A DNA stretch of 64,000 nucleotides. Origin: a virus. The stretch is from the IMG/VR virus record IMGVR_UViG_3300027518_000004. One strand, 5' to 3'. Position numbers and translations under genes: made by a program. Below, one piece after another: positions 18,084 through 54,218 of this stretch (its first letter is position 1; each line of letters begins with the position of its first letter). The notes under the pieces are model-generated. The model had not been told where the DNA came from. It saw only the letters and a list, made by a program, of their open reading frames with translations, and made no database searches.

Positions 18084-19772
18084 ATGGCAAAGTTATTTGG
18101 ATTCTCTATTAATGATACAACAAAACTAAGCCAAACAGCAGTCTCCCCCATTCCTCAAAATAATGAGGATGGGGTTGACTATTATTTGACTTCTGGTTTT
18201 TTTGGATCCTATGTTGATATTGAGGGAGTTTACAGAACAGAATATGATCTAATTCGCCGGTATCGTGAAATGTCACTTCACCCTGAAGTTGATTCTGCTA
18301 TTGAAGATATTGTAAATGAAGCTATCGTATCTGACTCTAATGACAGCCCAGTACAGATAGAATTATCTAATCTAAATGCTAGTGACGGAATCAAACAAAA
18401 GATAAGAGAAGAATTTAAATATGTTCTTCAGCTTTTAGATTTTGATAAAAAGTGTCATGAAATTTATAGAAACTGGTATGTTGATGGTAGACTTTACTAT
18501 CATAAAGTAATTGACTTTAAAAAACCAGAGCAGGGGATTCAAGAATTAAGATATATTGATAGCCTTAAAATGAGGTATGTAAGGCAAGCAAAGAAAAATA
18601 GCAAAGACAATCTAAAAGTTTTAAATCGAATGGGCGAAGCTGACCCCATGAATCAGTCTTTCCCTGATATCGAAGAGTATTTTGTTTATAATTCAAAACC
18701 TGCTTATCCATTAACAAACACTTCTGTTAGTGCAACCTCTTCTGAGAATGGTAGGAATGATGGCGCCATTAAGTTTGCTAAGGATAGTATTGTTTATTGC
18801 ACATCTGGTTTAGTAGATAGAAATAAAAATACTACTCTTTCTTATCTTAATAAAGCAATCAAATCTCTTAATCAACTAAGAATGATTGAGGATAGCATTG
18901 TAATTTACCGTATGGTAAGGGGAACTGAAAGGAGAATTTTTTATATTGATGTGGGCAATATGCCTAAAGTTAAGGCCGAACAATATCTCAAAGAAACTAT
19001 GATGAGATATAGAAATAAACTTAATTATAATATCGAAACTGGTGAGGTCCAAAATGATAGAAGATTCCAGAGCCTTATGGATGATTACTGGCTACCTCGT
19101 AGAGAAGGTGGCAGAGGAACTGAGGTAACGACTCTTCCTGGTTCCAATAATTTAGGGGAGTTAACTGATCTTAATTATTTCCAAAGAAAATTATATAAAT
19201 CTTTAAATGTTCCATCATCTAGAATAGATGGCGAAAGTGGATTTAACTTGGGCAGATCTTCAGAAATTTTAAGAGACGAAGTTAAATTTTCAAAATTTGT
19301 AGGGAGACTAAGAAAAAGATTTTCAAAATTATTTGTTGATCTTCTTAGAACACAATTAATCCTTAAAAATATTATAACTCCAGAAGATTGGGAATCCATG
19401 TCTGAACATATTCAGTTTGATTTCCTGTATGATAATCATTTTGCCGAACTAAAAGAATCCGAATTATTAACAGAAAGGCTGAATATGGTCTCAATGGCTG
19501 AGCCTTATGTTGGCAGATATTTTTCACAGGATTACTTACGAAGAAAAGTTCTAAGGCAAACTGATGAAGAAATCGTTGAGCAAGATATACTAATTCAAAA
19601 AGAAATTGAAAATGGGGTTATTCCTGATCCATCAATGCAAATAGATCCACAAACAGGTCAACCACTTGCTGAACCTCAAGGGGATAATATTCAAGGGGAT
19701 ATGGGTAAAGTCCCAACCGAACCTGGGGTTGATGCGGGTCCAGTAGAAATGCCGAAAGGCGGCGAGATATAA
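18084..19772 (+). CDS. gp20: Portal protein gp20
   Basis: HPEVDSAIEDIVNE, RRIFYIDVGNMPKVKAEQYL, DYWLPRREGGRGTE motifs. Confidence 0.97.
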   Translation: MAKLFGFSINDTTKLSQTAVSPIPQNNEDGVDYYLTSGFFGSYVDIEGVYRTEYDLIRRYREMSLHPEVDSAIEDIVNEAIVSDSNDSPVQIELSNLNASDGIKQKIREEFKYVLQLLDFDKKCHEIYRNWYVDGRLYYHKVIDFKKPEQGIQELRYIDSLKMRYVRQAKKNSKDNLKVLNRMGEADPMNQSFPDIEEYFVYNSKPAYPLTNTSVSATSSENGRNDGAIKFAKDSIVYCTSGLVDRNKNTTLSYLNKAIKSLNQLRMIEDSIVIYRMVRGTERRIFYIDVGNMPKVKAEQYLKETMMRYRNKLNYNIETGEVQNDRRFQSLMDDYWLPRREGGRGTEVTTLPGSNNLGELTDLNYFQRKLYKSLNVPSSRIDGESGFNLGRSSEILRDEVKFSKFVGRLRKRFSKLFVDLLRTQLILKNIITPEDWESMSEHIQFDFLYDNHFAELKESELLTERLNMVSMAEPYVGRYFSQDYLRRKVLRQTDEEIVEQDILIQKEIENGVIPDPSMQIDPQTGQPLAEPQGDNIQGDMGKVPTEPGVDAGPVEMPKGGEI

Positions 19773-21894: not shown

Positions 21895-22443
21895 ATGGCA
21901 CATAAACCTGTCGGAAGTGGCTCATCTGTAACTATTGCATCCGGTGCTGCCTCTACCTCTTCTTCCTTCCCTGTATATTCTGATACTATAAGAGTAGTTG
22001 CAGTTACTGCTGGAGTTTTTGTAAAAATTGATTCAGAACCAGTAGCAACTTCATCTGATTATTATGTACCAGCCAATTCATCTGCTACTCTTGCATTATC
22101 CCCCGCATCGCAAAGAGTAGTAGGCATTACTACAGGTGCAACAACTATTATCGATTTCCCAAGCGGAACTGGTACTCCATTTGAGCAAGGTGATTATGTT
22201 AGCCTAACTTGCCCCAATCAAAGTTTTTATAATTTTACCCATAAACAAGTTTTATCGGTAAATAATACAGCTGATGTGAGTGGTTATTTTTCAACAAGAA
22301 TAACAGTAAACAACAATTCTTCAGGGGTTGTAACTGCCTTTAATGATTATGGTGATATGAGAAAGTCACTAAAAGTTGGAACTTTTGGTACTGGTGCAGG
22401 AACACTTTATTATCAACAAGTTCAAATTTCAGGAGACGCCTAA
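21895..22443 (+). CDS. Conserved cyanophage-type virion protein preceding gp21
   Basis: MAHKPVGSG..., C-terminal LYYQQVQISGDA; synteny. Confidence 0.75.
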   Translation: MAHKPVGSGSSVTIASGAASTSSSFPVYSDTIRVVAVTAGVFVKIDSEPVATSSDYYVPANSSATLALSPASQRVVGITTGATTIIDFPSGTGTPFEQGDYVSLTCPNQSFYNFTHKQVLSVNNTADVSGYFSTRITVNNNSSGVVTAFNDYGDMRKSLKVGTFGTGAGTLYYQQVQISGDA

Positions 22444-23093
22444 TGAAACTAATCGTTGAAGAAGCCGAATCAGTAAAATATATTACTGAAGAAGTAAATG
22501 GCAAAAAAGCCCTTTTTATTGAGGGAAACTTTCTTATGGGTGATAACCCTAATAGAAATAACAGGGTTTATCCGATGGAAATCCTAAGAGAAGCCGTTAA
22601 AACTTATACCACAAATTTTATTAATTCAAAACGATCTCTTGGTGAATTAAATCACAATTCTGTCCCAGGAGTAGATTTAACAAAAGTATCACATATGATT
22701 ACCACTCTTAAAGAGAATGGTAATTATTTTTATGGTAAGGCCCGAATTTTAAATACTCCAATGGGTAAAATTGCTCAGGGTCTTATTTCTGAGGGGGTTG
22801 TTCTTGGAGTCAGTTCAAGGGCTCTTGGGAGTGTAAAGCCAACTAATGAAGGATATTCTGTAGTTGGTCCCGATCTTGTTATTAATTGTGTTGATATTGT
22901 TCATGATCCTTCGGTAGGTGCCGCTGCCTTTGTTAATGGCATTTATGAAGGAAAAGAGTGGATTTTTGATTCCGCAAAACAAGAATATGTCGCAATGAAC
23001 ATTAAAAATAGAATTGAACGCGATATTGTCAGCAAGAAATTATCTGAAGAAAGAATGATTATGCATTTTGAGAATTATCTCAACATGCTTTAA
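22443..23093 (+). CDS. gp21: Prohead core scaffolding protease gp21
   Basis: NRNNRVYP, LGELNH, GVSSRALGS, DIVHDPS motifs. Confidence 0.95.
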   Translation: MKLIVEEAESVKYITEEVNGKKALFIEGNFLMGDNPNRNNRVYPMEILREAVKTYTTNFINSKRSLGELNHNSVPGVDLTKVSHMITTLKENGNYFYGKARILNTPMGKIAQGLISEGVVLGVSSRALGSVKPTNEGYSVVGPDLVINCVDIVHDPSVGAAAFVNGIYEGKEWIFDSAKQEYVAMNIKNRIERDIVSKKLSEERMIMHFENYLNML

Positions 23094-23170: not shown

Positions 23171-24313
23171 ATGGCTCGCAAGCAACAATTAGATGAAATG
23201 GAAGCTAAGAACCCACAGTCTAGAACTAAGGTCAATGCAAGTGCCCAACCTGGCGATCCTATGCCAAAGTTAACCACCGGTATTCCTGATGGTCAAACTG
23301 GCAATTGGGAAGATCTTGGTGGCCCAACTCCAGAAAACGCAAAGCCTGATGATGATAGCGCAAAGCTAAAAGATCCGGCTGCCAATATTCAACGAGTAGC
23401 CGAAATCATCCGTGGCCGTAAAGGTTCACAAGAGGGTGATCAGGCTATGCAAAAAATGCATCTCCCTGAAGAGGAAGAGCATGATGAAGATGAAGTTGTA
23501 ACCGAAGATGCTTCTGAAGACGAAGAAGAGTTTGAAGAAGTAGAAGACGAAGCAGAAGAATTTGAAGATGACGAAGAAGAAGAGTTTGACATCCAAGAAG
23601 ATGTTGATGCTCTTGTTGGTGGCGAAGATCTTTCCGAAGAGTTCAAAGAAAAAGCCAAGACTATCTTTGAGGCTGCCCTTCGTTCCAAAGTCTCCGAAAT
23701 TAAAGAATCTCTTGAAGAACAGTATAACGTTGCTCTTCAAGAAGAAGTTCAGGCTATTGCAGAAGAACTTCAAGAACGTGCTGATTCCTACCTTGAATAT
23801 GTTGCAGAAGAGTGGATGCATGAGAATCAGCTCGCTATCACTCGCGGTATTAAGGAAGAACTCACTGAGAGCTTCCTTGTAAATCTCAAAGGACTTTTTG
23901 AGCAACATTATGTATCCATGCCAGATGAAAAATATGATGTCCTTGAGAACATGGTGAAAAAACTAGATGAAATGGAAAATAAACTCAACGAGCAAATTGA
24001 TAAAAACATTCAACTAAACAAGCGTCTCTGTGAGGCGGTTGCTGATGGAATCTTTGGTGATGTAGCTGATGGTCTAGCCGCCACTCAGAAGGAAAAGCTC
24101 GCTTCACTTGCCGAAAGTGTTGAGTTTGAAAGTGAAACTTCATATCGTGAAAAACTAGAGACCTTAAAGGAATCTTATTTCCCTGTAAATTATGTCTCTT
24201 CAATCGCTCGCCCTGAAGTGCTTACTGAAGATACTGAATACGTTGCAAATGAGTCATACTCAAATTCAATGAATCAATATCTCAAAGCTGCTTCACTGTT
24301 AGCCAATAATTGA
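23171..24313 (+). CDS. gp22: Prohead core scaffold protein gp22
   Basis: LSEEFKEKAKTIFEAA, YLEYVAEEWM motifs; acidic coiled coil; located before gp23. Confidence 0.93.
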   Translation: MARKQQLDEMEAKNPQSRTKVNASAQPGDPMPKLTTGIPDGQTGNWEDLGGPTPENAKPDDDSAKLKDPAANIQRVAEIIRGRKGSQEGDQAMQKMHLPEEEEHDEDEVVTEDASEDEEEFEEVEDEAEEFEDDEEEEFDIQEDVDALVGGEDLSEEFKEKAKTIFEAALRSKVSEIKESLEEQYNVALQEEVQAIAEELQERADSYLEYVAEEWMHENQLAITRGIKEELTESFLVNLKGLFEQHYVSMPDEKYDVLENMVKKLDEMENKLNEQIDKNIQLNKRLCEAVADGIFGDVADGLAATQKEKLASLAESVEFESETSYREKLETLKESYFPVNYVSSIARPEVLTEDTEYVANESYSNSMNQYLKAASLLANN

Positions 24314-24363: not shown

Positions 24364-25770
24364 ATGTCCGAAATTAACGAACAACATCTGCAGGAAAAGT
24401 GGGCTCCCCTTCTAAACTTTGACGGCCTTGACCCCATCAAGGATTCTCATCGTAAAAAGGTAACCGCTATTCTGCTAGAGAACCAAGAAAAAGAACTCCG
24501 TGAGACCAATGCATTCAACAATGGTCTTCTGATGGAAACCACTGTCGGTAACGCCGCAGGCGCTTCTGGTGGTTTCAGTGGCTCTGCTGCAGCTGGTGGC
24601 CCAGTAGCTGGTTTCGATCCTATCCTAATCAGCCTGATTCGCCGCGCAATGCCTAATCTGGTTGCTTATGATCTCGCTGGTGTACAGCCTCTGTCTGGTC
24701 CTACCGGTCTTATCTTCGCTATGCGTTCTCGCTATAATGGCCAGACTGGCGATGAGGCTTTCTACAATGAAGTTGATACTTCATTCTCAGGTCAAAACAG
24801 TGGCCGTAGCCTAACTGCTGGTATTACTTCTGCCATCTCTGGTATGGGTACTACTGCTGGTCAGGACGGTACTAACCCCGGTCTACTCAACCCAACTGGT
24901 TCTGCTATTCAGGCTGACTACAACGTTGGTCAGGGTATGGTAACTGGTGACGCTGAAAACCTCGGTAACGGCGATAACAACCAGTTCAACGAAATGAGCT
25001 TCTCTATCGAGAAAGTTCTTGTTGAAGCTAAGACCCGTGCGCTGCGTGCTGAGTACACCATTGAGCTTGCTCAGGACCTCAAGGCTATTCATGGTCTTTC
25101 TGCTGAAGCTGAGCTGGCTAACATTCTGTCTACCGAAATTCTTGCCGAAATTAACCGCGAGGTTATTCGTACCATTTATAAGGTAGCGGAACAAGGCGCA
25201 GCTGTAAACACTGCAACTCCTGGTGTATTTGACCTTGATATCGACTCCAACGGTCGTTGGTCCGTTGAGAAGTTTAAGGGTCTTCTCTTCCAAATCGAGC
25301 GCGATGCTAACGCTATCGCCCAGCGTACTCGTAGAGGGAAGGGTAACGTAATCATGTGCTCTGCTGACGTAGCTTCTGCGCTAACCATGGCTGGTGTACT
25401 TGATTATACTCCTGCTCTTAATGCTAACCTTAATGTAGATGATACTGGCAATACCTTTGCTGGTGTTCTCATGGGTAAGTATCGCGTGTATATCGATCCT
25501 TATTCTGCCAACGTTAACGCTACTCAGTATTACGTTGTTGGTTATAAGGGTTCTAGTCCTTATGATAATGGAATCTTCTATGCTCCATACGTGCCTCTCC
25601 AGATGGTCCGTGCGGTAGATCCTAAGACCTATCAGCCTTCCATCGGATTTAAGACTCGTTATGGCATGGTTGCAAACCCATTCGCTGAGGGTCCTGATAA
25701 GGGTCTAGGTGCTCTTAAGATTAATAGCAACAGATATTATCGTAGAGTTTCCATAAAGAATTTATCTTAA
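24364..25770 (+). CDS. gp23: Major capsid protein gp23
   Basis: EKWAPLL, GPVAGFDPILISLIRRAMPNL, GFKTRYGMVANPF motifs. Confidence 0.98.
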   Translation: MSEINEQHLQEKWAPLLNFDGLDPIKDSHRKKVTAILLENQEKELRETNAFNNGLLMETTVGNAAGASGGFSGSAAAGGPVAGFDPILISLIRRAMPNLVAYDLAGVQPLSGPTGLIFAMRSRYNGQTGDEAFYNEVDTSFSGQNSGRSLTAGITSAISGMGTTAGQDGTNPGLLNPTGSAIQADYNVGQGMVTGDAENLGNGDNNQFNEMSFSIEKVLVEAKTRALRAEYTIELAQDLKAIHGLSAEAELANILSTEILAEINREVIRTIYKVAEQGAAVNTATPGVFDLDIDSNGRWSVEKFKGLLFQIERDANAIAQRTRRGKGNVIMCSADVASALTMAGVLDYTPALNANLNVDDTGNTFAGVLMGKYRVYIDPYSANVNATQYYVVGYKGSSPYDNGIFYAPYVPLQMVRAVDPKTYQPSIGFKTRYGMVANPFAEGPDKGLGALKINSNRYYRRVSIKNLS

Positions 25771-25845: not shown

Positions 25846-26607
25846 ATGACCAAAGTTATGAGTACAGAAGAAAGGTTTTATGTTTATCATATCATAAATC
25901 CTATAACCGGAAGACTTTTCTATGTTGGAAAAGGAACTGGATGTAGATGCAAACAACATCTAACAGATAAAAAGGAGTACGCATTTAATAAACGCCTCAA
26001 CGGATACATAAGAAATCTAATTGAGTCTAATAATAATCCAATCATTCAAAAGATAGCCGAAAATTTAACTGAAGAAGACGCTTATCTGTTAGAAGAATCC
26101 GAAATCAAAAAATATGGTAGAGTAGGCTTTGAAAAGGATGGAGTTCTTCTAAACATCCTAGATTCTGGAAGACCTCCAAAGTTTGAAGGAGAAAATCACC
26201 CTTGGTGGGGCCGTAGTCATACTCCTGAAACTAAGGCCAAAATTAGTAAAACTAAAAAGGAAAATTTTGCGAAAGGAATTAATAAGCCTAGAAGCGGGTT
26301 TACCCAAACACCTGAAACAAAAGAAAAAATTGGCGCTAAAAATCGAGGAAGAAAAAGAACACCAGAAGCAATTGAAAAAACTCGTCAAGCAAACCTGGGC
26401 AGACCTCAAAGTGATCATCAGAAGAAAAGAGCAGAAGAAGCAAACAGTAAACGCTGGCTTGTTATTGCTCCTGATGGAACAGAGGAGATTGTTGTAAATC
26501 TTTCAAAATATTGTAGAGAAAGAAGATTAAATAATAGTTCTATGAGATTGGTTGCTTATGGTAAACAAGATGATTATAAAGGATATAAAGTAAAAAAACT
26601 GGACTAA
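25846..26607 (+). CDS. Free-standing GIY-YIG homing endonuclease with NUMOD3 repeats (seg-like)
   Basis: FYVYHIINP...FYVGKG..R..QH catalytic motif; NHPWWGRSHTPETKAKIS and TPETKEKIG repeats. Confidence 0.88.
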   Translation: MTKVMSTEERFYVYHIINPITGRLFYVGKGTGCRCKQHLTDKKEYAFNKRLNGYIRNLIESNNNPIIQKIAENLTEEDAYLLEESEIKKYGRVGFEKDGVLLNILDSGRPPKFEGENHPWWGRSHTPETKAKISKTKKENFAKGINKPRSGFTQTPETKEKIGAKNRGRKRTPEAIEKTRQANLGRPQSDHQKKRAEEANSKRWLVIAPDGTEEIVVNLSKYCRERRLNNSSMRLVAYGKQDDYKGYKVKKLD

Positions 26608-47924: not shown

Positions 47925-48506
47925 ATGCGCAAGTTAGTCAATTTTCTTGTTGAAGAAAAATATTGTAATACACAATCTGAGGCCATAAAAATCCTAGAAA
48001 GCGTTAGTGATGAGTTTTATAATTATTTAATTGAAGCTGAAATTTCTGCAACAGATTTAATAAATACATCTAATAGACAACTGAGACAGGAATTATCTAA
48101 ACGATCTCCGAATCCAAAACTCATTCTTCATCTTACAAAAAAAATAAAAGGTCTTAGAGGTCCTGCATCTGCAGAATCAGCACAGCGACCAAAAACAAGT
48201 AAAGGATTATCACCAACTCCAACTGGACGGGGTGGCAGAAGAGTTCAAAAACCTGGAGATCAAATTTCTACTATTGGAACAACAGCAGGAATACAAAGAA
48301 CAGATACTGGAAAATATTCTAGAGCGGCTACTATTTTAACCGGAACCTCTCCAGAATCAAGAGGCAGACAAAGTGTAGATAGCGGAAGAACTCGAACATC
48401 TGAACTAGTTGGAGATAGATTTACTGATAAAGCTGTTTTTGGGGCGGGGGGAACAAATCAGGCAAGATCTGGTGGAACAAGAGGAGTAAGAACCCGTAAC
48501 GGGTAA
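47925..48506 (+). CDS. Acidic-module / basic-segment family protein
   Basis: MRKLVNFLVEEKYCNTQSEAIKILESVSDEFYNYLIE|AEIS followed by an R/G/T-rich tail. Confidence 0.78.
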   Translation: MRKLVNFLVEEKYCNTQSEAIKILESVSDEFYNYLIEAEISATDLINTSNRQLRQELSKRSPNPKLILHLTKKIKGLRGPASAESAQRPKTSKGLSPTPTGRGGRRVQKPGDQISTIGTTAGIQRTDTGKYSRAATILTGTSPESRGRQSVDSGRTRTSELVGDRFTDKAVFGAGGTNQARSGGTRGVRTRNG

Positions 48507-48516
48507 TATAATAAAA

Positions 48517-49725
48517 ATGAAAAAATACCTTGAATTTATATTAGAAGCCAGAGCATCTAGAGCCAGCCAAAAAGCATCTCAGCTTAACCTCAAAAGCGAT
48601 GGACATGGATACTGGGTTGACTCTGCAAATAGAGTTGTTGCAAAAACAGTAAAGGGTGATTTGGTATTTGTAAAAAAGAAATCGCCATCAGCCGAAAAGT
48701 CTCAAGTTGCTCCTCCAGCAGCAAGACCTTCTCTGAGACAAGATGAGCCCCTACAAAAGAGAGTTGCACCGCAAAGGCAAGCACCGCAGCCAGAGGAACA
48801 ACCTGCCGCACCAGAACCGGAAGTTCTTAATGTCCTCACGGCTGTATTTGGTAGATTTAATCCACCAACAATTGGACATGAAAAGTTATTAAGAAAAGCC
48901 AAACAAATAGCCCAAGGGGGGGATTTAAAAATATATCCATCTAGAATGACTGGAGATCTTGCTAATCCGTTAGATCCCAAAACAAAAATTTTTTATATGA
49001 GAAAATCATATCCTCAATTTGATGAAAATATTATTAACAATGATGATATGAAAACTATTTTTGATGTCCTAAAAAGAGCAGATCTTGATGGTTATGATGC
49101 AGTTAATTTAGTCACTGGTTCAAAACGAAAAGCCGAATTTGAGCGTCTATCAAAACAATATAATGGAGAAATTTATGATTTACAAGATATTAAAATAATT
49201 CCACTTGATAGTGAAGATCCTGATTTAGAAAATAGCCCGAATCCAACATCATCAGCAGCCTTGAGAAAAGCCGCCTCTGAAGATGATTTTTTCTCTTTCC
49301 AGAGAGGCATTTCAAAAAAGTTAGATCCTAAACAACAAAAAAATCTCTTCTTTGCTGTACAAAAAGCTCTAAGTGGAGAAAAAGAAGAGTCCTGGAAGAT
49401 ATCACCAGAAGAAAATTATGAGATTCTTAAAGAAGCGTATTACCAAGAAAAAATTTATAGGACGGGTGATATTATTGAAAACTTTAATACTGGTCTGAGT
49501 GGCAAAATCATAAGAAGAGGGCCAAATTATGTTATTTGCGTAAATGAAAACTTAAATGTAATGTTTAAATCTTGGATTACCGACATTAGAGAATGGACTG
49601 ATGTTTCTGGAGTTCCACCAGAACAAAGAGAAGTAGGAACAGATGCTTATCTAAATTATGTAATGAAGATGACGGGAACAAAGGTAATCCAAAACTTTTT
49701 AGAGAAGAGAAAAAAAACTAAATAA
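48517..49725 (+). CDS. HIGH-motif nucleotidyltransferase ('cytidyltransferase'-like of T4-like cyanophages)
   Basis: FGRFNPPTIGH, SSAALR and C-terminal GKIIRRGPNYVI motifs. Confidence 0.88.
   Translation: MKKYLEFILEARASRASQKASQLNLKSDGHGYWVDSANRVVAKTVKGDLVFVKKKSPSAEKSQVAPPAARPSLRQDEPLQKRVAPQRQAPQPEEQPAAPEPEVLNVLTAVFGRFNPPTIGHEKLLRKAKQIAQGGDLKIYPSRMTGDLANPLDPKTKIFYMRKSYPQFDENIINNDDMKTIFDVLKRADLDGYDAVNLVTGSKRKAEFERLSKQYNGEIYDLQDIKIIPLDSEDPDLENSPNPTSSAALRKAASEDDFFSFQRGISKKLDPKQQKNLFFAVQKALSGEKEESWKISPEENYEILKEAYYQEKIYRTGDIIENFNTGLSGKIIRRGPNYVICVNENLNVMFKSWITDIREWTDVSGVPPEQREVGTDAYLNYVMKMTGTKVIQNFLEKRKKTK
49718..49724 (+). promoter_or_regulatory. Late promoter CTAAATA
   Basis: At the end of the upstream gene, 21 nt before the ATG at 49746. 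Confidence 0.6.
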
Positions 49726-49745: not shown

Positions 49746-51158
49746 ATGTCAGAAAAAATTGTCAATGCCCTTGCTGAAATGAAAAGGGTATATATCGAGG
49801 AAGTTTCTCACAATAACCTTCTTCAGCAAAGGATTGATGAAGAATTTGTTCAGATTCAAGAGTATAAAAAACCAAGATTAGATCCTGTAGGACAAGAGGA
49901 TGATGACATTGATAATGATGGGGATTCAGATGAAACTGATTCATATTTATCAAACAGAAGAAAAGTAAGATTCAAAGCAATTAACAAAGAAGACGAAGAA
50001 GAGGAAGACGAAGAAGAGGAAGACGAAGAAGAGGAAGACGAAGAGGAAGAAGAAGAAAACTCTACTAAGAAAAAGAAAAAATCAGTAAAGGAAAGTCGGT
50101 ATTATAGCTGGCGAGATACTATTGACGAAAATACTCTTTGGGAAATTGTTGATTCCGAAGAGCAGAAACAAATTAAAGAAAAAAATGTTAACAATTACAA
50201 TGGTAAAAATCCGGTTGTAACAATTAATCCAGAAGTTAAAACCGAATCATTTTTACTTGACGTTGAAGAATTAGATGAGGACTTTATTCAAGAGTCTATT
50301 AATATTGTTTCTGATTATCTTTGTGAGGAGGGGCTGACACTTGATGAAATTCAAAATCTCATTGATGAAATTGGTGTTGAAGAATTTTCTGAGTGGGTCT
50401 TAGAGTTTGGTTATAATACCATCTGTGAAGAAGCCGTACAAGGAGAACTTCTTACAAGTAAAGGAAAAGCGAGAAAATCTCCAAAAATAACAAGTCAAAC
50501 CGGATCTGCTTCTGTCATTAAACACACTCCATCTAAATCATCTTCAGATAGTGAAACAGAACGTTCTCCATCTCCTGGCCAGTTATCTATAAATTTTTCA
50601 AATAAAAAAACAAATCTTCCCCCAGGTCAACAAAGAATTATTGATAATTTAAAATCAGCAGAAAAAAGAAAAGAAGTAGCAGGTAGACTTAAAGATACTG
50701 TTGCTAGGGGGGTCCTCTCCGCCCTTAAAGGGCATAGTAAAGCAATGGATATTAAAAAATCTGGTGGGACTATTGCTCAACAATTAGGCGGGGGCGCGGG
50801 CGCTGCTCTGGGTAGTTTTTTTTCTCGCGGAAATTCTCAATTCAGGGAATGGGTAGAAGATCTCCTTCAAGAAGGGTATGATCTTTCTGAATATACATGG
50901 GATGAGCTTTATGAAGAATATGAAGAACTTTATGAGAAGGCTGTTTCTGAGCAACAACAAAAACTTTTTGGCCTGGCTCTTTCAGTAAAGCGCGGTGAAA
51001 CCTCAAGAAATAAAGTTAGCAAAGAGGTTTTAAAAATTGTTGATACGATGTCAGAAAAACAAATTCGTAAGTATGCTAAAACTTCTCATGAAGGCATCCC
51101 AGAGAAAAAAGAAGAATTGGCCGAAAAGGTAATTGAATTTATCAGAGAAAATTATTAA
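49746..51158 (+). CDS. Modular acidic protein of the same family (470 aa)
   Basis: Contains EWVEDLLQEGYDLSEYTWDELYEEY and VSDYLCEEG modules, a poly-acidic tract, and a C-terminal KAVSEQQQKLFG...YAKTSHEGIPEK module. Confidence 0.8.
   Translation: MSEKIVNALAEMKRVYIEEVSHNNLLQQRIDEEFVQIQEYKKPRLDPVGQEDDDIDNDGDSDETDSYLSNRRKVRFKAINKEDEEEEDEEEEDEEEEDEEEEEENSTKKKKKSVKESRYYSWRDTIDENTLWEIVDSEEQKQIKEKNVNNYNGKNPVVTINPEVKTESFLLDVEELDEDFIQESINIVSDYLCEEGLTLDEIQNLIDEIGVEEFSEWVLEFGYNTICEEAVQGELLTSKGKARKSPKITSQTGSASVIKHTPSKSSSDSETERSPSPGQLSINFSNKKTNLPPGQQRIIDNLKSAEKRKEVAGRLKDTVARGVLSALKGHSKAMDIKKSGGTIAQQLGGGAGAALGSFFSRGNSQFREWVEDLLQEGYDLSEYTWDELYEEYEELYEKAVSEQQQKLFGLALSVKRGETSRNKVSKEVLKIVDTMSEKQIRKYAKTSHEGIPEKKEELAEKVIEFIRENY
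49989..50045 (+). repeat. Tandem 15-nt repeat GAAGACGAAGAAGAG (EDEEE), about 3.8 copies
   Basis: Read directly from the sequence. Confidence 0.9.
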
Positions 51159-51373: not shown

Positions 51374-51399
51374 AAAAAGGGGGGAATTTCCCCCCTTTT
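51374..51399 (+). terminator. Terminator (potentially bidirectional)
   Basis: AAAAAGGGGG-GAATTT-CCCCCTTTTT. Confidence 0.8.
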
Positions 51400-51450: not shown

Positions 51451-51966
51451 ATGTCTCTCTGGGGATTAAAAGACAATATTGGTTCTAACGGAACAGTATC
51501 TCTCAATTATTCTACTTTAGTTGTTACCGGCGCAGGTACTTCTTTTGGTCAAACCGGAGCTGCTAGTACTGGTGATGTAATTCGGTTTGGCGATAGAGCG
51601 GGTGTTTATTTCGGTGATGCTGTAATTGTTGGTATCGCAAGCACTACTCAACTCTCTATTGCAAGCACTACTAATCTAAGTGGATCCGCGATTGCATCTA
51701 CCGCGTTTTCAATTAGTCAACTTCCAAAGTATACTACATTAGATCCATATTACGGTGAACGTAATACTAATTACGACGCATATGTTTATGGTGTTGCTGG
51801 AGGTGGAGCCGCCGCATCAAAAACTACTAGATATGAGATTACACACCAAGGCTGGGTAGGTGTTACAACTTATATGTGTGATGGTCAACTTAGAGTTAAG
51901 GCTGAAACTCTAGTCGCAATGTCTGGAATAGAAACTGGAAATACACCTGTTTATCCTCCTGCTTGA
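51451..51966 (+). CDS. Virion structural protein (MSLWG-type, fibre/decoration-like)
   Basis: MSLWG N-terminus, HQGWVGVTTY...LRVKAETLVAMS C-terminus. Confidence 0.75.
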   Translation: MSLWGLKDNIGSNGTVSLNYSTLVVTGAGTSFGQTGAASTGDVIRFGDRAGVYFGDAVIVGIASTTQLSIASTTNLSGSAIASTAFSISQLPKYTTLDPYYGERNTNYDAYVYGVAGGGAAASKTTRYEITHQGWVGVTTYMCDGQLRVKAETLVAMSGIETGNTPVYPPA

Positions 51967-51975
51967 TAATTAATA

Positions 51976-52356
51976 ATGTTCTTTAATGAATTGAATGAAG
52001 AAAACTTTCTTCTTTTTGCAATAAAAAATTATAATAATCCACAAGGGTTAACCGAAGAAGATTTTTATAAAGATTTAAATCATTTTAAATATATTAAAAG
52101 ACATTTAACAAAGTATAGCACTACTGGCATTTTAAAAATGCAGCTAATACTTAAACATTTTATTATACTTTATAATATTTTTGGAGATGCAGCAACTCCA
52201 ATGCTGTTTTTTAAGGTTCCAAAAGAACTTTGGAACACTATTAAGACTTTTGTTGTATTTCTCAACAGATTACCCGATTATCCTAAGTGTTTTATACATG
52301 ATATTGAAATAGATATATTTTGTATGGAAAAATTACAAGAGCTGACTAATAACTGA
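51976..52356 (+). CDS. Conserved T4-like hypothetical protein
   Basis: ELNEENFLLFAIKNYNNP...FKYIKR...HFIILYNIFG. Confidence 0.8.
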   Translation: MFFNELNEENFLLFAIKNYNNPQGLTEEDFYKDLNHFKYIKRHLTKYSTTGILKMQLILKHFIILYNIFGDAATPMLFFKVPKELWNTIKTFVVFLNRLPDYPKCFIHDIEIDIFCMEKLQELTNN

Positions 52357-52427: not shown

Positions 52428-52434
52428 CTAAATA
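52428..52434 (+). promoter_or_regulatory. Late promoter CTAAATA
   Basis: 29 nt before the ATG at 52464. Confidence 0.55.
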
Positions 52435-52463: not shown

Positions 52464-52709
52464 ATGGATTTTAATAATTATAAGATCGAAGAAATTATAA
52501 AACTAGTAAGAGAGGAAATGACTGTGGCAAACGCGCCGGGTCAATCTGGGGGATTTGGTGAGCTTTCCCCTAAAGAAGGTCCTACTGCGGGCTATACTCA
52601 ACCAATGTTTGGGCTTCCTGTAAGAAGAAATGGAAGGCTCGATGTTCGTAATCCATTCGTTAAAAAATATAGAATGTTACTTACCTCTCTTGGGTTAATT
52701 ACTAAATAA
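52464..52709 (+). CDS. Small late protein (81 aa) with a gp23 N-arm-like segment
   Basis: The ATG at 52464 is preferred over the TTG at 52395; contains REE|MTVANAPGQSGGF...GPTAGY. Confidence 0.75.
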   Translation: MDFNNYKIEEIIKLVREEMTVANAPGQSGGFGELSPKEGPTAGYTQPMFGLPVRRNGRLDVRNPFVKKYRMLLTSLGLITK

Positions 52710-52761: not shown

Positions 52762-53241
52762 ATGTCAGAAGATTTAATAAGAGTCGCTGTTTTAGAGCAA
52801 AGAGTAGCAGACCTAAAGGAAATAGTTTTAAAAGTTGATGATGCAATAGAAAAAATTAGTCAAGTCAATATTAACTTGACTAAAATGATTGCTGTGCATG
52901 AAGAAAAATTTGAAGTTAGAGAAAAATCAGAAAGAAGTATAAATGGTAAAATAGATGATATTTATGAAAAAATGGAGAAAGATCATAAAAATGTTCTAAA
53001 TGAAATTCATAAAGTTAATACTACACTAGAAAAGGTAGAGCAAAACGTAGATAAAAGGCTAACTAAAGTAGAAGATGGCCAAACAAACATTAACTTAAAG
53101 TTGGCTGCTGTTGCGGCTTGTGCGCTATTTATTGGATTTATTATACAAAATTCTGGATTTTTTGTTAAAATTCTTTCTGATGAGGAAAAGGCCTTGACAA
53201 ATCCAACTCCCCCTGCTATGGTGGATCTGAAAGCTCGATAA
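52762..53241 (+). CDS. Coiled-coil protein with a C-terminal hydrophobic segment
   Basis: RVAVLEQR...MIAVHEEK heptads; LAAVAACALFIGFII membrane-like segment; conserved position before primase. Confidence 0.78.
   Translation: MSEDLIRVAVLEQRVADLKEIVLKVDDAIEKISQVNINLTKMIAVHEEKFEVREKSERSINGKIDDIYEKMEKDHKNVLNEIHKVNTTLEKVEQNVDKRLTKVEDGQTNINLKLAAVAACALFIGFIIQNSGFFVKILSDEEKALTNPTPPAMVDLKAR
53194..53222 (+). promoter_or_regulatory. Sigma70-like promoter for primase-nrdAB
   Basis: TTGACA-17 nt-TATGGT with TGn. Confidence 0.75.
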
Positions 53242-53255
53242 AAAGTTTTTATATT

Positions 53256-54218
53256 GTGGATTTTATTGATGAGAGTTTTATTGAACGAGTTTCTTCAAGG
53301 CTACAAAATTATAAAAAAGTAAAACCAAAACTTTATAATTTTAGATGTCCTTTTTGTGGAGATTCTTCCAGGTCTAAGAGAAAAGCCAGAGGATATTTAT
53401 ATCCTGTAAACAATAACACAAATTATAAATGCCACAATTGTGGCATAAGTATTTCTTTTAATAATTTCTTAAAAGAGATTGACCCGATTCTTTATAAGGA
53501 GTTTTCAATTGAAAAATATAGAGCAGGATTTACTGGTAAAAACTTTGTTGTTGAATCACCAAAGTTTGATATAAAAACTCCGGTATTTAGAGAGAAAATT
53601 TCTTTGCCAAAAGCATCTTCTGATACTCAAGCAAAAGAATACTTGGAGAAGAGGAAGTTAGATCCTAATTTATATTATTATGCGGATGATTTCAGTAAAT
53701 GGGTTAACTCAATTACTGAAGAACCCAACTTAAAATCTGAGCCTAGAATAGTAATACCTTTGTACTATAATAAGGCTTTAATCGGAGTTCAGGGCAGATC
53801 CATAGGTCCTTCTCCGATTAAATATATAACAATTATGTTTAATAAAGATGCCCCAAAAATTTATAACTATGATTCAATAGATAAGGAAAATCTTGTTTAT
53901 GTTTTAGAGGGTCCTTTTGATTCATATTTTATAAAAAATTCAATAGCAATGTGTGGGGCCGATATAGATTTAAAAAATCTAAATATCTATTACCCGGTCT
54001 ATGTTTATGATAACGAACCCCGCAATAAAGAAATCCATGACAGAATGTCAAAGGCAATTCAACGAGGGTATTCGATCGTAATATGGCCAGAAACAATAAA
54101 AGAAAAGGACGTTAATGATGCTGTTTTAGCTGGTATTGATGTTCAAGACGTTTTGTCTAAAAATGTTTATAGAGACTTAGAAGCACAACTCAAATTTAAC
54201 TTTTGGAAGAAAAAATGA
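53256..54218 (+). CDS. gp61: DNA primase gp61
   Basis: CPFCGD...CHNCG zinc finger, QGRS, EGPFD and YDNE TOPRIM motifs. Confidence 0.95.
   Translation: MDFIDESFIERVSSRLQNYKKVKPKLYNFRCPFCGDSSRSKRKARGYLYPVNNNTNYKCHNCGISISFNNFLKEIDPILYKEFSIEKYRAGFTGKNFVVESPKFDIKTPVFREKISLPKASSDTQAKEYLEKRKLDPNLYYYADDFSKWVNSITEEPNLKSEPRIVIPLYYNKALIGVQGRSIGPSPIKYITIMFNKDAPKIYNYDSIDKENLVYVLEGPFDSYFIKNSIAMCGADIDLKNLNIYYPVYVYDNEPRNKEIHDRMSKAIQRGYSIVIWPETIKEKDVNDAVLAGIDVQDVLSKNVYRDLEAQLKFNFWKKK

Follow-up and report, generated by a model that had tools for sequence, protein, structure and literature searches.

The locus studied here raises the question of why a virus should encode, in addition to its major capsid protein gp23, a small protein that repeats the gp23 mature N-terminus. 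The gene is an 81-amino-acid (aa) open reading frame (ORF; P0001, 52464..52709, + strand, including the stop codon) in virus record IMGVR_UViG_3300027518_000004, a T4-like cyanophage. The term "window" denotes the whole 64,000-nucleotide (nt) stretch of DNA that was analyzed. The ORF list and the homologues place P0001 in a cyanomyovirus family that carries a copy of the gp23 N-fist, as a short form of that family. An original prediction, made from the letters alone, held that the protein mimics the N-terminal arm of gp23; the observation behind it was confirmed, and its interpretation was supported in part. The answer considered most probable on balance is that the ORF encodes a protease-trimmed minor head protein, the short T4-GC426/phrog_696 form, which corresponds to T4 gp61.1 in architecture and position. 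Set against the literature covered by the search, the protein would be a variant, so far undescribed, among the small head proteins of T4 type that the protease processes.

The copied segment was defined by alignment to gp23 (P0002, 24364..25770, + strand; Pfam PF07068, E = 2.5e-147). Small-protein residues 18-44 (52515-52595) read EMTVANAPGQSGGFGELSPKEGPTAGY and align without gaps to gp23 residues 58-84 (24535-24615), ETTVGNAAGASGGFSGSAAAGGPVAGF, with 14 of 27 positions identical. BLASTP with compositional adjustment extended the match to 17 of 38 residues ending at a common RR (E = 1e-6), and the gp23-like module was accordingly assigned to residues 18-55 (52515..52628, + strand) from BLASTP, hhalign, and shuffles. 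The window translation and BLASTP show that the predicted coordinates and gap-free match were correct. The segment is Gly-, Ala-, and Ser-rich, a property that would favor a chance low-complexity likeness. A shuffle test permuted only the matched segment and kept its Gly/Ala content; 0 of 200,000 shuffles equaled the observed alignment score or the 14 identities, and the similarity thus survives the correction for Gly/Ala composition that the original prediction had set as a test. Among 175 window ORFs of at least 60 aa, gp23 was the sole outlier against the small protein (score 71, next 37). An hhalign comparison of the short-form family alignment with the gp23 alignment returned a probability of 95.4% (E = 1.8e-8). 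These results support the conclusion that the small protein carries a true, paralogue-like copy of the N-terminus of mature gp23 and that the match is no artifact of composition.

The template of the copy is gp23 residues 58-94 (24535-24645), equivalent to T4 residues 65-101. Alignment of the window gp23 to T4 gp23 chain 6uzc_a places E58 on T4 E65, the maturation cleavage residue, and residues 59-84 on T4 66-91, the N-fist. The copy, 27-37 residues long, therefore starts with the P1 Glu, continues through the N-fist, and takes in ten residues at the beginning of the N-arm, as these parts are known from T4-type gp23 (PF07068; PDB 5VF3, 7VS5, 6UZC). P0001 itself has no match to PF07068, and its gp23-like residues 18-55 are located N-terminal to the Pfam domain, whose first residue in gp23 is 81. 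A free-standing 81-aa protein cannot be a capsid subunit because it is without the HK97-fold body.

The P0001 translation is MDFNNYKIEEIIKLVREEMTVANAPGQSGGFGELSPKEGPTAGYTQPMFGLPVRRNGRLDVRNPFVKKYRMLLTSLGLITK. The leader (residues 1-17, MDFNNYKIEEIIKLVRE; 52464..52514, + strand) is a predicted amphipathic helix, which the AlphaFold2 (AF2) model extends over residues 3-21. The gp23-like part is disordered in the model (residues 22-60), and a short helix is predicted at residues 64-75 (52653-52688). The tail (residues 45-81; 52596..52706, + strand) carries a net charge of +7 over 37 aa, as the original prediction of a basic remainder had it, and contains a PMFGLP-RRNGKLD-RNPFIKKY motif that is conserved in the homologue alignment. 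Fifteen metagenomic homologues of 60-78 aa are 61-85% identical to P0001; among named relatives, Synechococcus phages B3/B23 have 78% identity and Prochlorococcus phage P-TIM68 has 49%. The ratio of nonsynonymous to synonymous substitution (dN/dS) among orthologues is about 0.1, with synonymous sites near saturation and the protein ~80% identical. This ratio indicates that P0001 is a genuine gene under purifying selection.

Gene order connects P0001 to the wider family. In each Kyanoviridae genome examined, a single ORF of 61-240 aa lies between the DUF7207 gene (T4-GC198) and the DUF7201 gene (T4-GC201)/gp61. The conserved neighbors in the window are DUF7207 upstream (51976..52356, + strand; PF23837, E = 5e-49) and the coiled-coil DUF7201 gene downstream (52762..53241, + strand; PF23831, E = 1.6e-22), followed by the gp61 DNA primase (53256..54218, + strand; phrog_47, E = 1e-75). 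When the window gp23 N-terminus was used as query, 15 of 23 cyanophage genomes gave a single secondary hit, which was the syntenic small ORF. The same query found no second hit in phiM12 and DLP_6, which carry DUF7207 and are not cyanophages, with their own gp23 not used as query, and the phiM12 neighbor gene is not fist-copy-like. The family N-terminal motif is G-G-F-x-G-x5-G-P-x-A-G-(F/Y)-D-P-(V/I)-(L/M). The 30 residues after the copy have a net charge of +3 to +8 in family members, at least +5 in all but one metagenomic form.

The long form of the family, phrog_696 or T4-GC426, has ~180 aa (range about 170-240). Its members SSM1_197, Syn33_189, and PSSM4_163 occupy the same locus between T4-GC198 and T4-GC201, upstream of gp61, and likewise have a gp23-like module at the N-terminus, with a basic stretch after it. 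They differ in a C-terminal domain and a long helix, both absent from the 81-aa protein, whose tail has one 12-residue helix only, and many are leaderless or begin with MNEE only. The long-form model consists of a small beta-beta-alpha-alpha-beta domain and a ~70-residue helix (about residues 64-180), and a Foldseek search of this model against the PDB gave no significant match. An hhalign comparison of the short-form and long-form alignments gave a probability of 96.1% over the N-terminal 31 columns only. The phrog_696 profile was matched by the short forms of P-TIM68 (5.4e-6), S-PRM1 (2.4e-8), and S-N03 (7e-7), and the S-PRM1 form also matched phrog_3286, forming a bridge to the most divergent forms. 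A search of PDB sequences with the short-form profile gave chance matches only. By its locus, and by the profile matches of related short forms, the 81-aa ORF is probably a short form of the T4-GC426/phrog_696 family.

Family-level virion association comes from published proteomics. Sullivan et al. (2010) listed T4-GC426 as 'Structural protein' with 17 peptide counts in CsCl-purified S-SM1 virions (PMC3037559 Table S8). The S-SM1 protein, SSM1_197, is encoded at the same locus, starts MTMMSAGTGGFSSSADATGPNAGYDPVL, and contains the gp23-like motif. The 'structural protein' label of the 75-aa S-N03 orthologue is similarity-based and does not come from mass spectrometry. A different label, 'major head protein', is attached in RefSeq to the ~180-aa T4-GC426 proteins of ACG-2014b, S-RIM12, S-SSM5, P-RSM4, S-CAM8, S-CAM22, and WH25-B (for example L021 2318-2872, L022 2318-2872, and L056 304-816), and the phrog_696 description is identical. 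This label is a spreading mislabel because T4-GC426 proteins do not have the capsid fold.

The position of a candidate cleavage site was compared across the family. T4 gp21 cleaves after Glu in L/I-x-E, and the T4 capsid-targeting sequence (CTS) is MKTYQEFIAE (PMC9026906). The window encodes a gp21 prohead core protease (22443..23093, + strand; Peptidase_S77, PF03420, E = 1.3e-32), the presumed processing enzyme. Both matched segments start at a Glu after a hydrophobic residue, L-M-E in gp23 and V-R-E-E (52506..52517, + strand) in the small protein, as the original prediction noted for its gp21-type sites. A hydrophobic-x-Glu motif directly precedes the copy in every leader-bearing member, either aligned with the gp23 P1 Glu or one residue off. 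The motif is V-R-E in the window clade; V-N-E, V-E-E, F-R-E, L-D-E, L-R-E, L-K-E, and I-N-E in other lineages; and, in leaders of only four residues, M-N-E. Where no leader exists, the start coincides with the gp23* N-terminus or lies no more than a few residues from it; S-RIM8, for example, starts MTIATAGTGGF, compared with TLATAGTGGF after the gp23 cleavage Glu. Motif position and leaderless starts agree, and a free N-terminus in about the gp23* register thus looks like a conserved property. The window-clade module has a second hydrophobic-x-Glu, F-G-E at residues 31-33 (52554-52562; GGFGE followed by LSPKEG), which has no counterpart in gp23 and may offer the protease a further site.

The leader was compared with known targeting sequences. 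The window leader and the homologue consensus MEKIDEIIKLVRE show a K-hydrophobic-x-E-hydrophobic-I pattern like that of the CTS, but the leader is 13-17 residues long, and the likeness is tentative, no more than a lead. The small protein shares with the T4 internal proteins IPI/IPII/IPIII and Alt a small size, basic character, and a predicted N-terminal amphipathic leader ending in hydrophobic-x-Glu. It differs from them in that its leader exceeds the 10 aa of the CTS and resembles it only loosely, and IPI/IPII/IPIII are without a copy of the capsid protein's mature N-terminus.

T4 itself encodes a protein of the same design. The T4 gene order is 61.2-61.1-61, with 61.1 directly upstream of the primase gene 61. 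The 54-aa gp61.1 (NP_049649; phrog_1823, 'hypothetical protein') reads MKTFKEFIKE-DMVAGDSGGNPENISIGTTSGAVVNKGP-EQIPKKKKEESKEKEE. Against the whole T4 genome it matched only itself and gene 23 (E = 1.4e-5). The alignment to T4 gp23 57-93 is ungapped (score 82, equaled in 0 of 20,000 shuffles) and places E10 on the cleavage residue Glu65. Like the window protein, gp61.1 combines a leader, here a CTS ending in I-K-E, with a copy of the post-cut segment of its own gp23 and a Lys-rich tail, and its gene lies just upstream of the primase. The window protein differs in being longer and in having the conserved PMFGLP...KLD.RNPFIKKY tail and a C-terminal helix, and cyanophages have one gene (DUF7201) between the small gene and gene 61. 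Direct similarity between the two proteins is absent (hhalign probability 2.4%; no match of P0001 to phrog_1823 or to phrog_2086, a long form), as expected if each copy follows its own gp23. Judged from sequence and gene order, the design and position are common across the T4 superfamily. No function for T4 gene 61.1 was given in those parts of the literature that the search covered, where 'gp61.1' occurred only in papers titled as genome characterizations. The gp61.1 leader, which is the T4 CTS type (NC_000866, L079 2967-3131, minus strand), also aligns with the last residues of the gp23 propeptide (KTFKEFIKE with QAFGSFLTE). Positions 4, 7, 8, and 10, which are known to be important in the CTS, correspond to gp23 F59, F62, L63, and E65, and the CTS may therefore derive from, or imitate, the propeptide end.

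The original prediction would be contradicted by homologues that do not track their own gp23. The syntenic ORF was paired with gp23 from the same genome in 25 phages, and all-versus-all scores against gp23 N-regions were computed for 19 non-redundant lineages. The mean own-pair score was 82.3 compared with 58.6 ± 3.0 for permuted pairings (p <= 1e-5), and the phage's own gp23 ranked 1-3 in 12 of 19 lineages. Homologues do follow their own gp23. Idiosyncratic sequences are common to the small protein and gp23 only within one genome. In S-T4 the small protein has GGGAMYRGSGREDSGSPTAGYDP and its own gp23 GGGAYYRGSGQTDSGAPTGGFDP (own score 108, next best 60); in MED4-213 both contain TNVGPINTPTT (own score 111, next best 52); and the ACG-2014d small protein is identical to its own gp23 at 26 of 32 positions spanning the cleavage site. 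The two segments are coupled, since an uncoupled old duplication gives no reason for higher own-pair scores. Two fist 'alleles', TAGTGGFSG and QTTGYTG, occur among related cyanophages (S-SM1, L082 306-854 and L083 1501-2877). Four phages mix allele types between the small protein and gp23, which suggests exchange of either gene between phages.

The codons distinguish copying of DNA from selection on the protein. T4-like phages recombine actively, and a decaying relic of a partial gp23 duplication could be kept similar to its source by gene conversion. Within genomes, the pooled proportion of synonymous differences (pS) between small protein and gp23 is 0.68, which is saturated, and the nonsynonymous proportion (pN) is 0.26. 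Identical codons at identical residues numbered 108 compared with 116.5 expected from codon usage. Saturated synonymous sites and identical codons at or below the codon-usage expectation rule out recent gene conversion as the cause of tracking, and they indicate that the likeness is held by selection on the protein. The same codon data, the dN/dS of about 0.1, the shuffle result, and the retention of the gene at one locus across Kyanoviridae leave a chance likeness or decaying relic effectively refuted. The likeness could be held by true co-evolution or by rare, old copying followed by purifying selection on both copies.

Tracking of a phage-specific capsid epitope is also what the logic of an anti-defense decoy calls for, in which the copy would titrate a host factor that senses the N-terminal part of the capsid protein. 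The analogy is with abortive infection triggered by capsid sensing, and capsid-peptide sensing occurs in Escherichia coli in the Gol/Lit system. The copy ends just before the Gol-equivalent region, a decoy has no need of the conserved protease motif and register, a family member is virion-associated, and no defense gene context was seen. A decoy function is accordingly very improbable.

How a minor head protein might use the copy was considered in light of the T4 structures. Before the T4 head expands, gp23* residues 66-105 are disordered and directed into its interior, where they probably lie on the scaffold core (PMC9546572, PMC9958956). Expansion brings these residues to the outer surface as the N-arm and the N-fist, and the N-fist contacts four subunits (PMC9546572, PMC9958956). 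The T4 gp23 N-terminal segment is thus inside before and outside after expansion, and for this reason a free copy could act in two ways. In the proposed scheme, the small protein would be made together with the head proteins and then enter the prohead, where gp21 would trim the leader and leave an N-terminus in the mature gp23 register (E18 or M19, (E)MTVANAPGQSGGF...). The copied segment would then take the contacts of gp23's own N-terminal segment. In reading (a), before expansion, it would act within the prohead as a handle, like that of gp23, on the scaffold core. In reading (b), after trimming and expansion, it would sit in N-fist sockets of the shell at interruptions of the lattice. The basic tail, for its part, would attach to DNA or the very acidic gp22 scaffold, whose gene (23171..24313, + strand; PF25623, E = 4e-79) encodes a long Asp/Glu-rich stretch. 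We infer the prohead loading, the cleavage, and the kind of contact made. Reading (a) fits the leader, protease motif, and basic tail, whereas the low spectral counts and the conservation of the N-terminal register speak for reading (b). The two are close to evenly matched, with the core placement slightly favored.

The original prediction proposed a version of its own, in which the cleaved copy could occupy N-arm grooves without a capsomer neighbor, at the portal or a vertex junction, or could tether DNA to the inner shell. Worked out further, the copy would plug N-fist/N-arm sockets around the portal or at gp24-less vertices, at a low number of ~5-60 per head, and the tail would reach DNA or the portal. 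The lattice is irregular at the T4 portal, where five portal-facing gp23 subunits keep disordered N-fists (PMC7136217). A plug of this kind is consistent with an N-terminus in the gp23* register, whether by cleavage or by direct start, and with protein-level tracking of a hypervariable segment for which T4 offers a single known structured role, to contact four gp23 subunits as the N-fist (PMC9958956). The S-SM1 counts point weakly the same way; the 17 counts are near those of similar-sized proteins present in 6-12 copies, such as gp3 (18), and unlike those of gp19 (73). The plug is opposed by topology. Once the head has expanded, the N-fists face outward, but a gp21 substrate with a DNA-like basic tail should be internal, and the chain would have to cross the shell. 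In addition, the four lineages with mismatched pairs (below) show that the copy can do without an exact fit to its cognate shell. This version is possible but doubtful. A still less probable extension covers T4-like phages generally (gp61.1, T4-GC426, and the short forms). It posits a trans-acting 'spare N-fist', trimmed by the head protease, that would fill empty sockets at the portal vertex or at gp24-less vertices while its chain threads the shell and its basic tail holds DNA or the portal. If true, the 'spare N-fist' would be a new class of capsid 'patch' protein co-evolving with the shell.

Several observations weigh against the minor head protein interpretation. The topology problem bears on its socket variant as well. 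Cleavage by gp21 is predicted from a three-residue motif. P0001 had no match to PHROG (even at E <= 1) or Pfam profiles. The virion detection is limited to the S-SM1 long form and does not extend to the 81-aa short form; T4-GC426 was annotated but undetected in Syn9 virions, and the cluster is absent from S-PM2 (PMC3037559 Table S8). The window's own pair scored only third best of 19, and tracking is therefore coarse and not residue by residue within the window clade. Small-protein/gp23 pairs are mismatched in ACG-2014b, Syn33, S-RIM2, and S-SM1, and detectable gp23 likeness has been lost in the S-WAM2, S-CAM3, and ACG-2014f forms. The late promoter claimed for the small gene is weakly supported. 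A sequence scan of its surroundings gave no canonical T4 late promoter, TATAAATA, and located only a late-promoter-like variant, CTAAATA, 36 nt 5' of the ATG (52428..52434, + strand). Three neighboring genes, with ATGs at 47925, 49746, and 51451, have the CTAAATA box 27-37 nt 5' of the start; the coding strand carries 21 of its 24 copies, a total not above chance. Late expression of the small gene is plausible from this box.

The Syn9 result would suit a protein that is not a structural component. In such a scheme the small protein would regulate assembly or maturation, either as a gp21 decoy or competing substrate or as an N-fist socket cap that times assembly or expansion, and would then be degraded or lost. 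Conservation of both the protease motif and the gp23-like segment is consistent with this role, as are the intrinsic disorder of the copied module alone in the models of the short and long forms and the location of the gene in a replication-gene neighborhood in T4 and cyanophages alike. The long form is nevertheless present in the purified S-SM1 virions at 17 counts, leaderless forms offer no cleavage site as a decoy, and the conserved basic tail and the long-form C-terminal domain are left unexplained. A regulator of this type is unlikely.

The minor head protein interpretation was also viewed against the neighboring genes. The gp20 portal gene (18084-19772) and the genes for gp21, gp22, and gp23 are all encoded within the same window as the small gene. 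Upstream of P0001, the cytidylyltransferase (T4-GC190) starts MKKYLEFILE (48517-48546), near the T4 CTS, and a 193-aa protein has the near-canonical start MRKLVNFLVE (47925-47954). The T4-GC190 family was found by mass spectrometry in S-SM1 virions. These CTS-like starts and this detection make 48-53 kb look like a head-content gene cluster. The 171-aa phrog_3086 protein (51451-51966) is the counterpart of the cyanophage T4-GC934/425 genes, which are labeled 'virion structural protein', 'head protein', or 'S-layer domain protein' in other cyanophages, and S-SM1 virions gave 17 counts for T4-GC425. A 470-aa protein (49746-51158), encoded between the cytidylyltransferase and this 171-aa protein, contains an extreme run of Glu and Asp, EEEEDEEEEDEEEEDEEEEEE, and ends in a DUF3008 domain; a strong hairpin terminator then follows at 51375-51399. 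A GIY-YIG-like homing-endonuclease ORF (253 aa, ...YVYHIINPITGRLFYVGKGTG...; 25846-26607) lies directly 3' of gp23. S-B43 carries a homing endonuclease gene as an insertion between its DUF7201 and primase genes (L030 2309-2818).

T4 head assembly is among the best-studied assembly pathways, yet gene 61.1 is without a function in the literature searched, and the cyanophage family is known only as an anonymous 'structural protein' or under the mistaken name of 'major head protein'. The analysis corrects this annotation error, which is spreading in RefSeq cyanophage records. It bears on how proteins are targeted to the prohead, on the pre-expansion partner of the gp23 N-terminal segment, and on lattice completion at the portal. 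A small gene that copies the maturation site and N-fist of the capsid protein, is held like its cognate gp23 by selection on the protein, and has a long form in virions points to an unrecognized component or step of T4-type head assembly.

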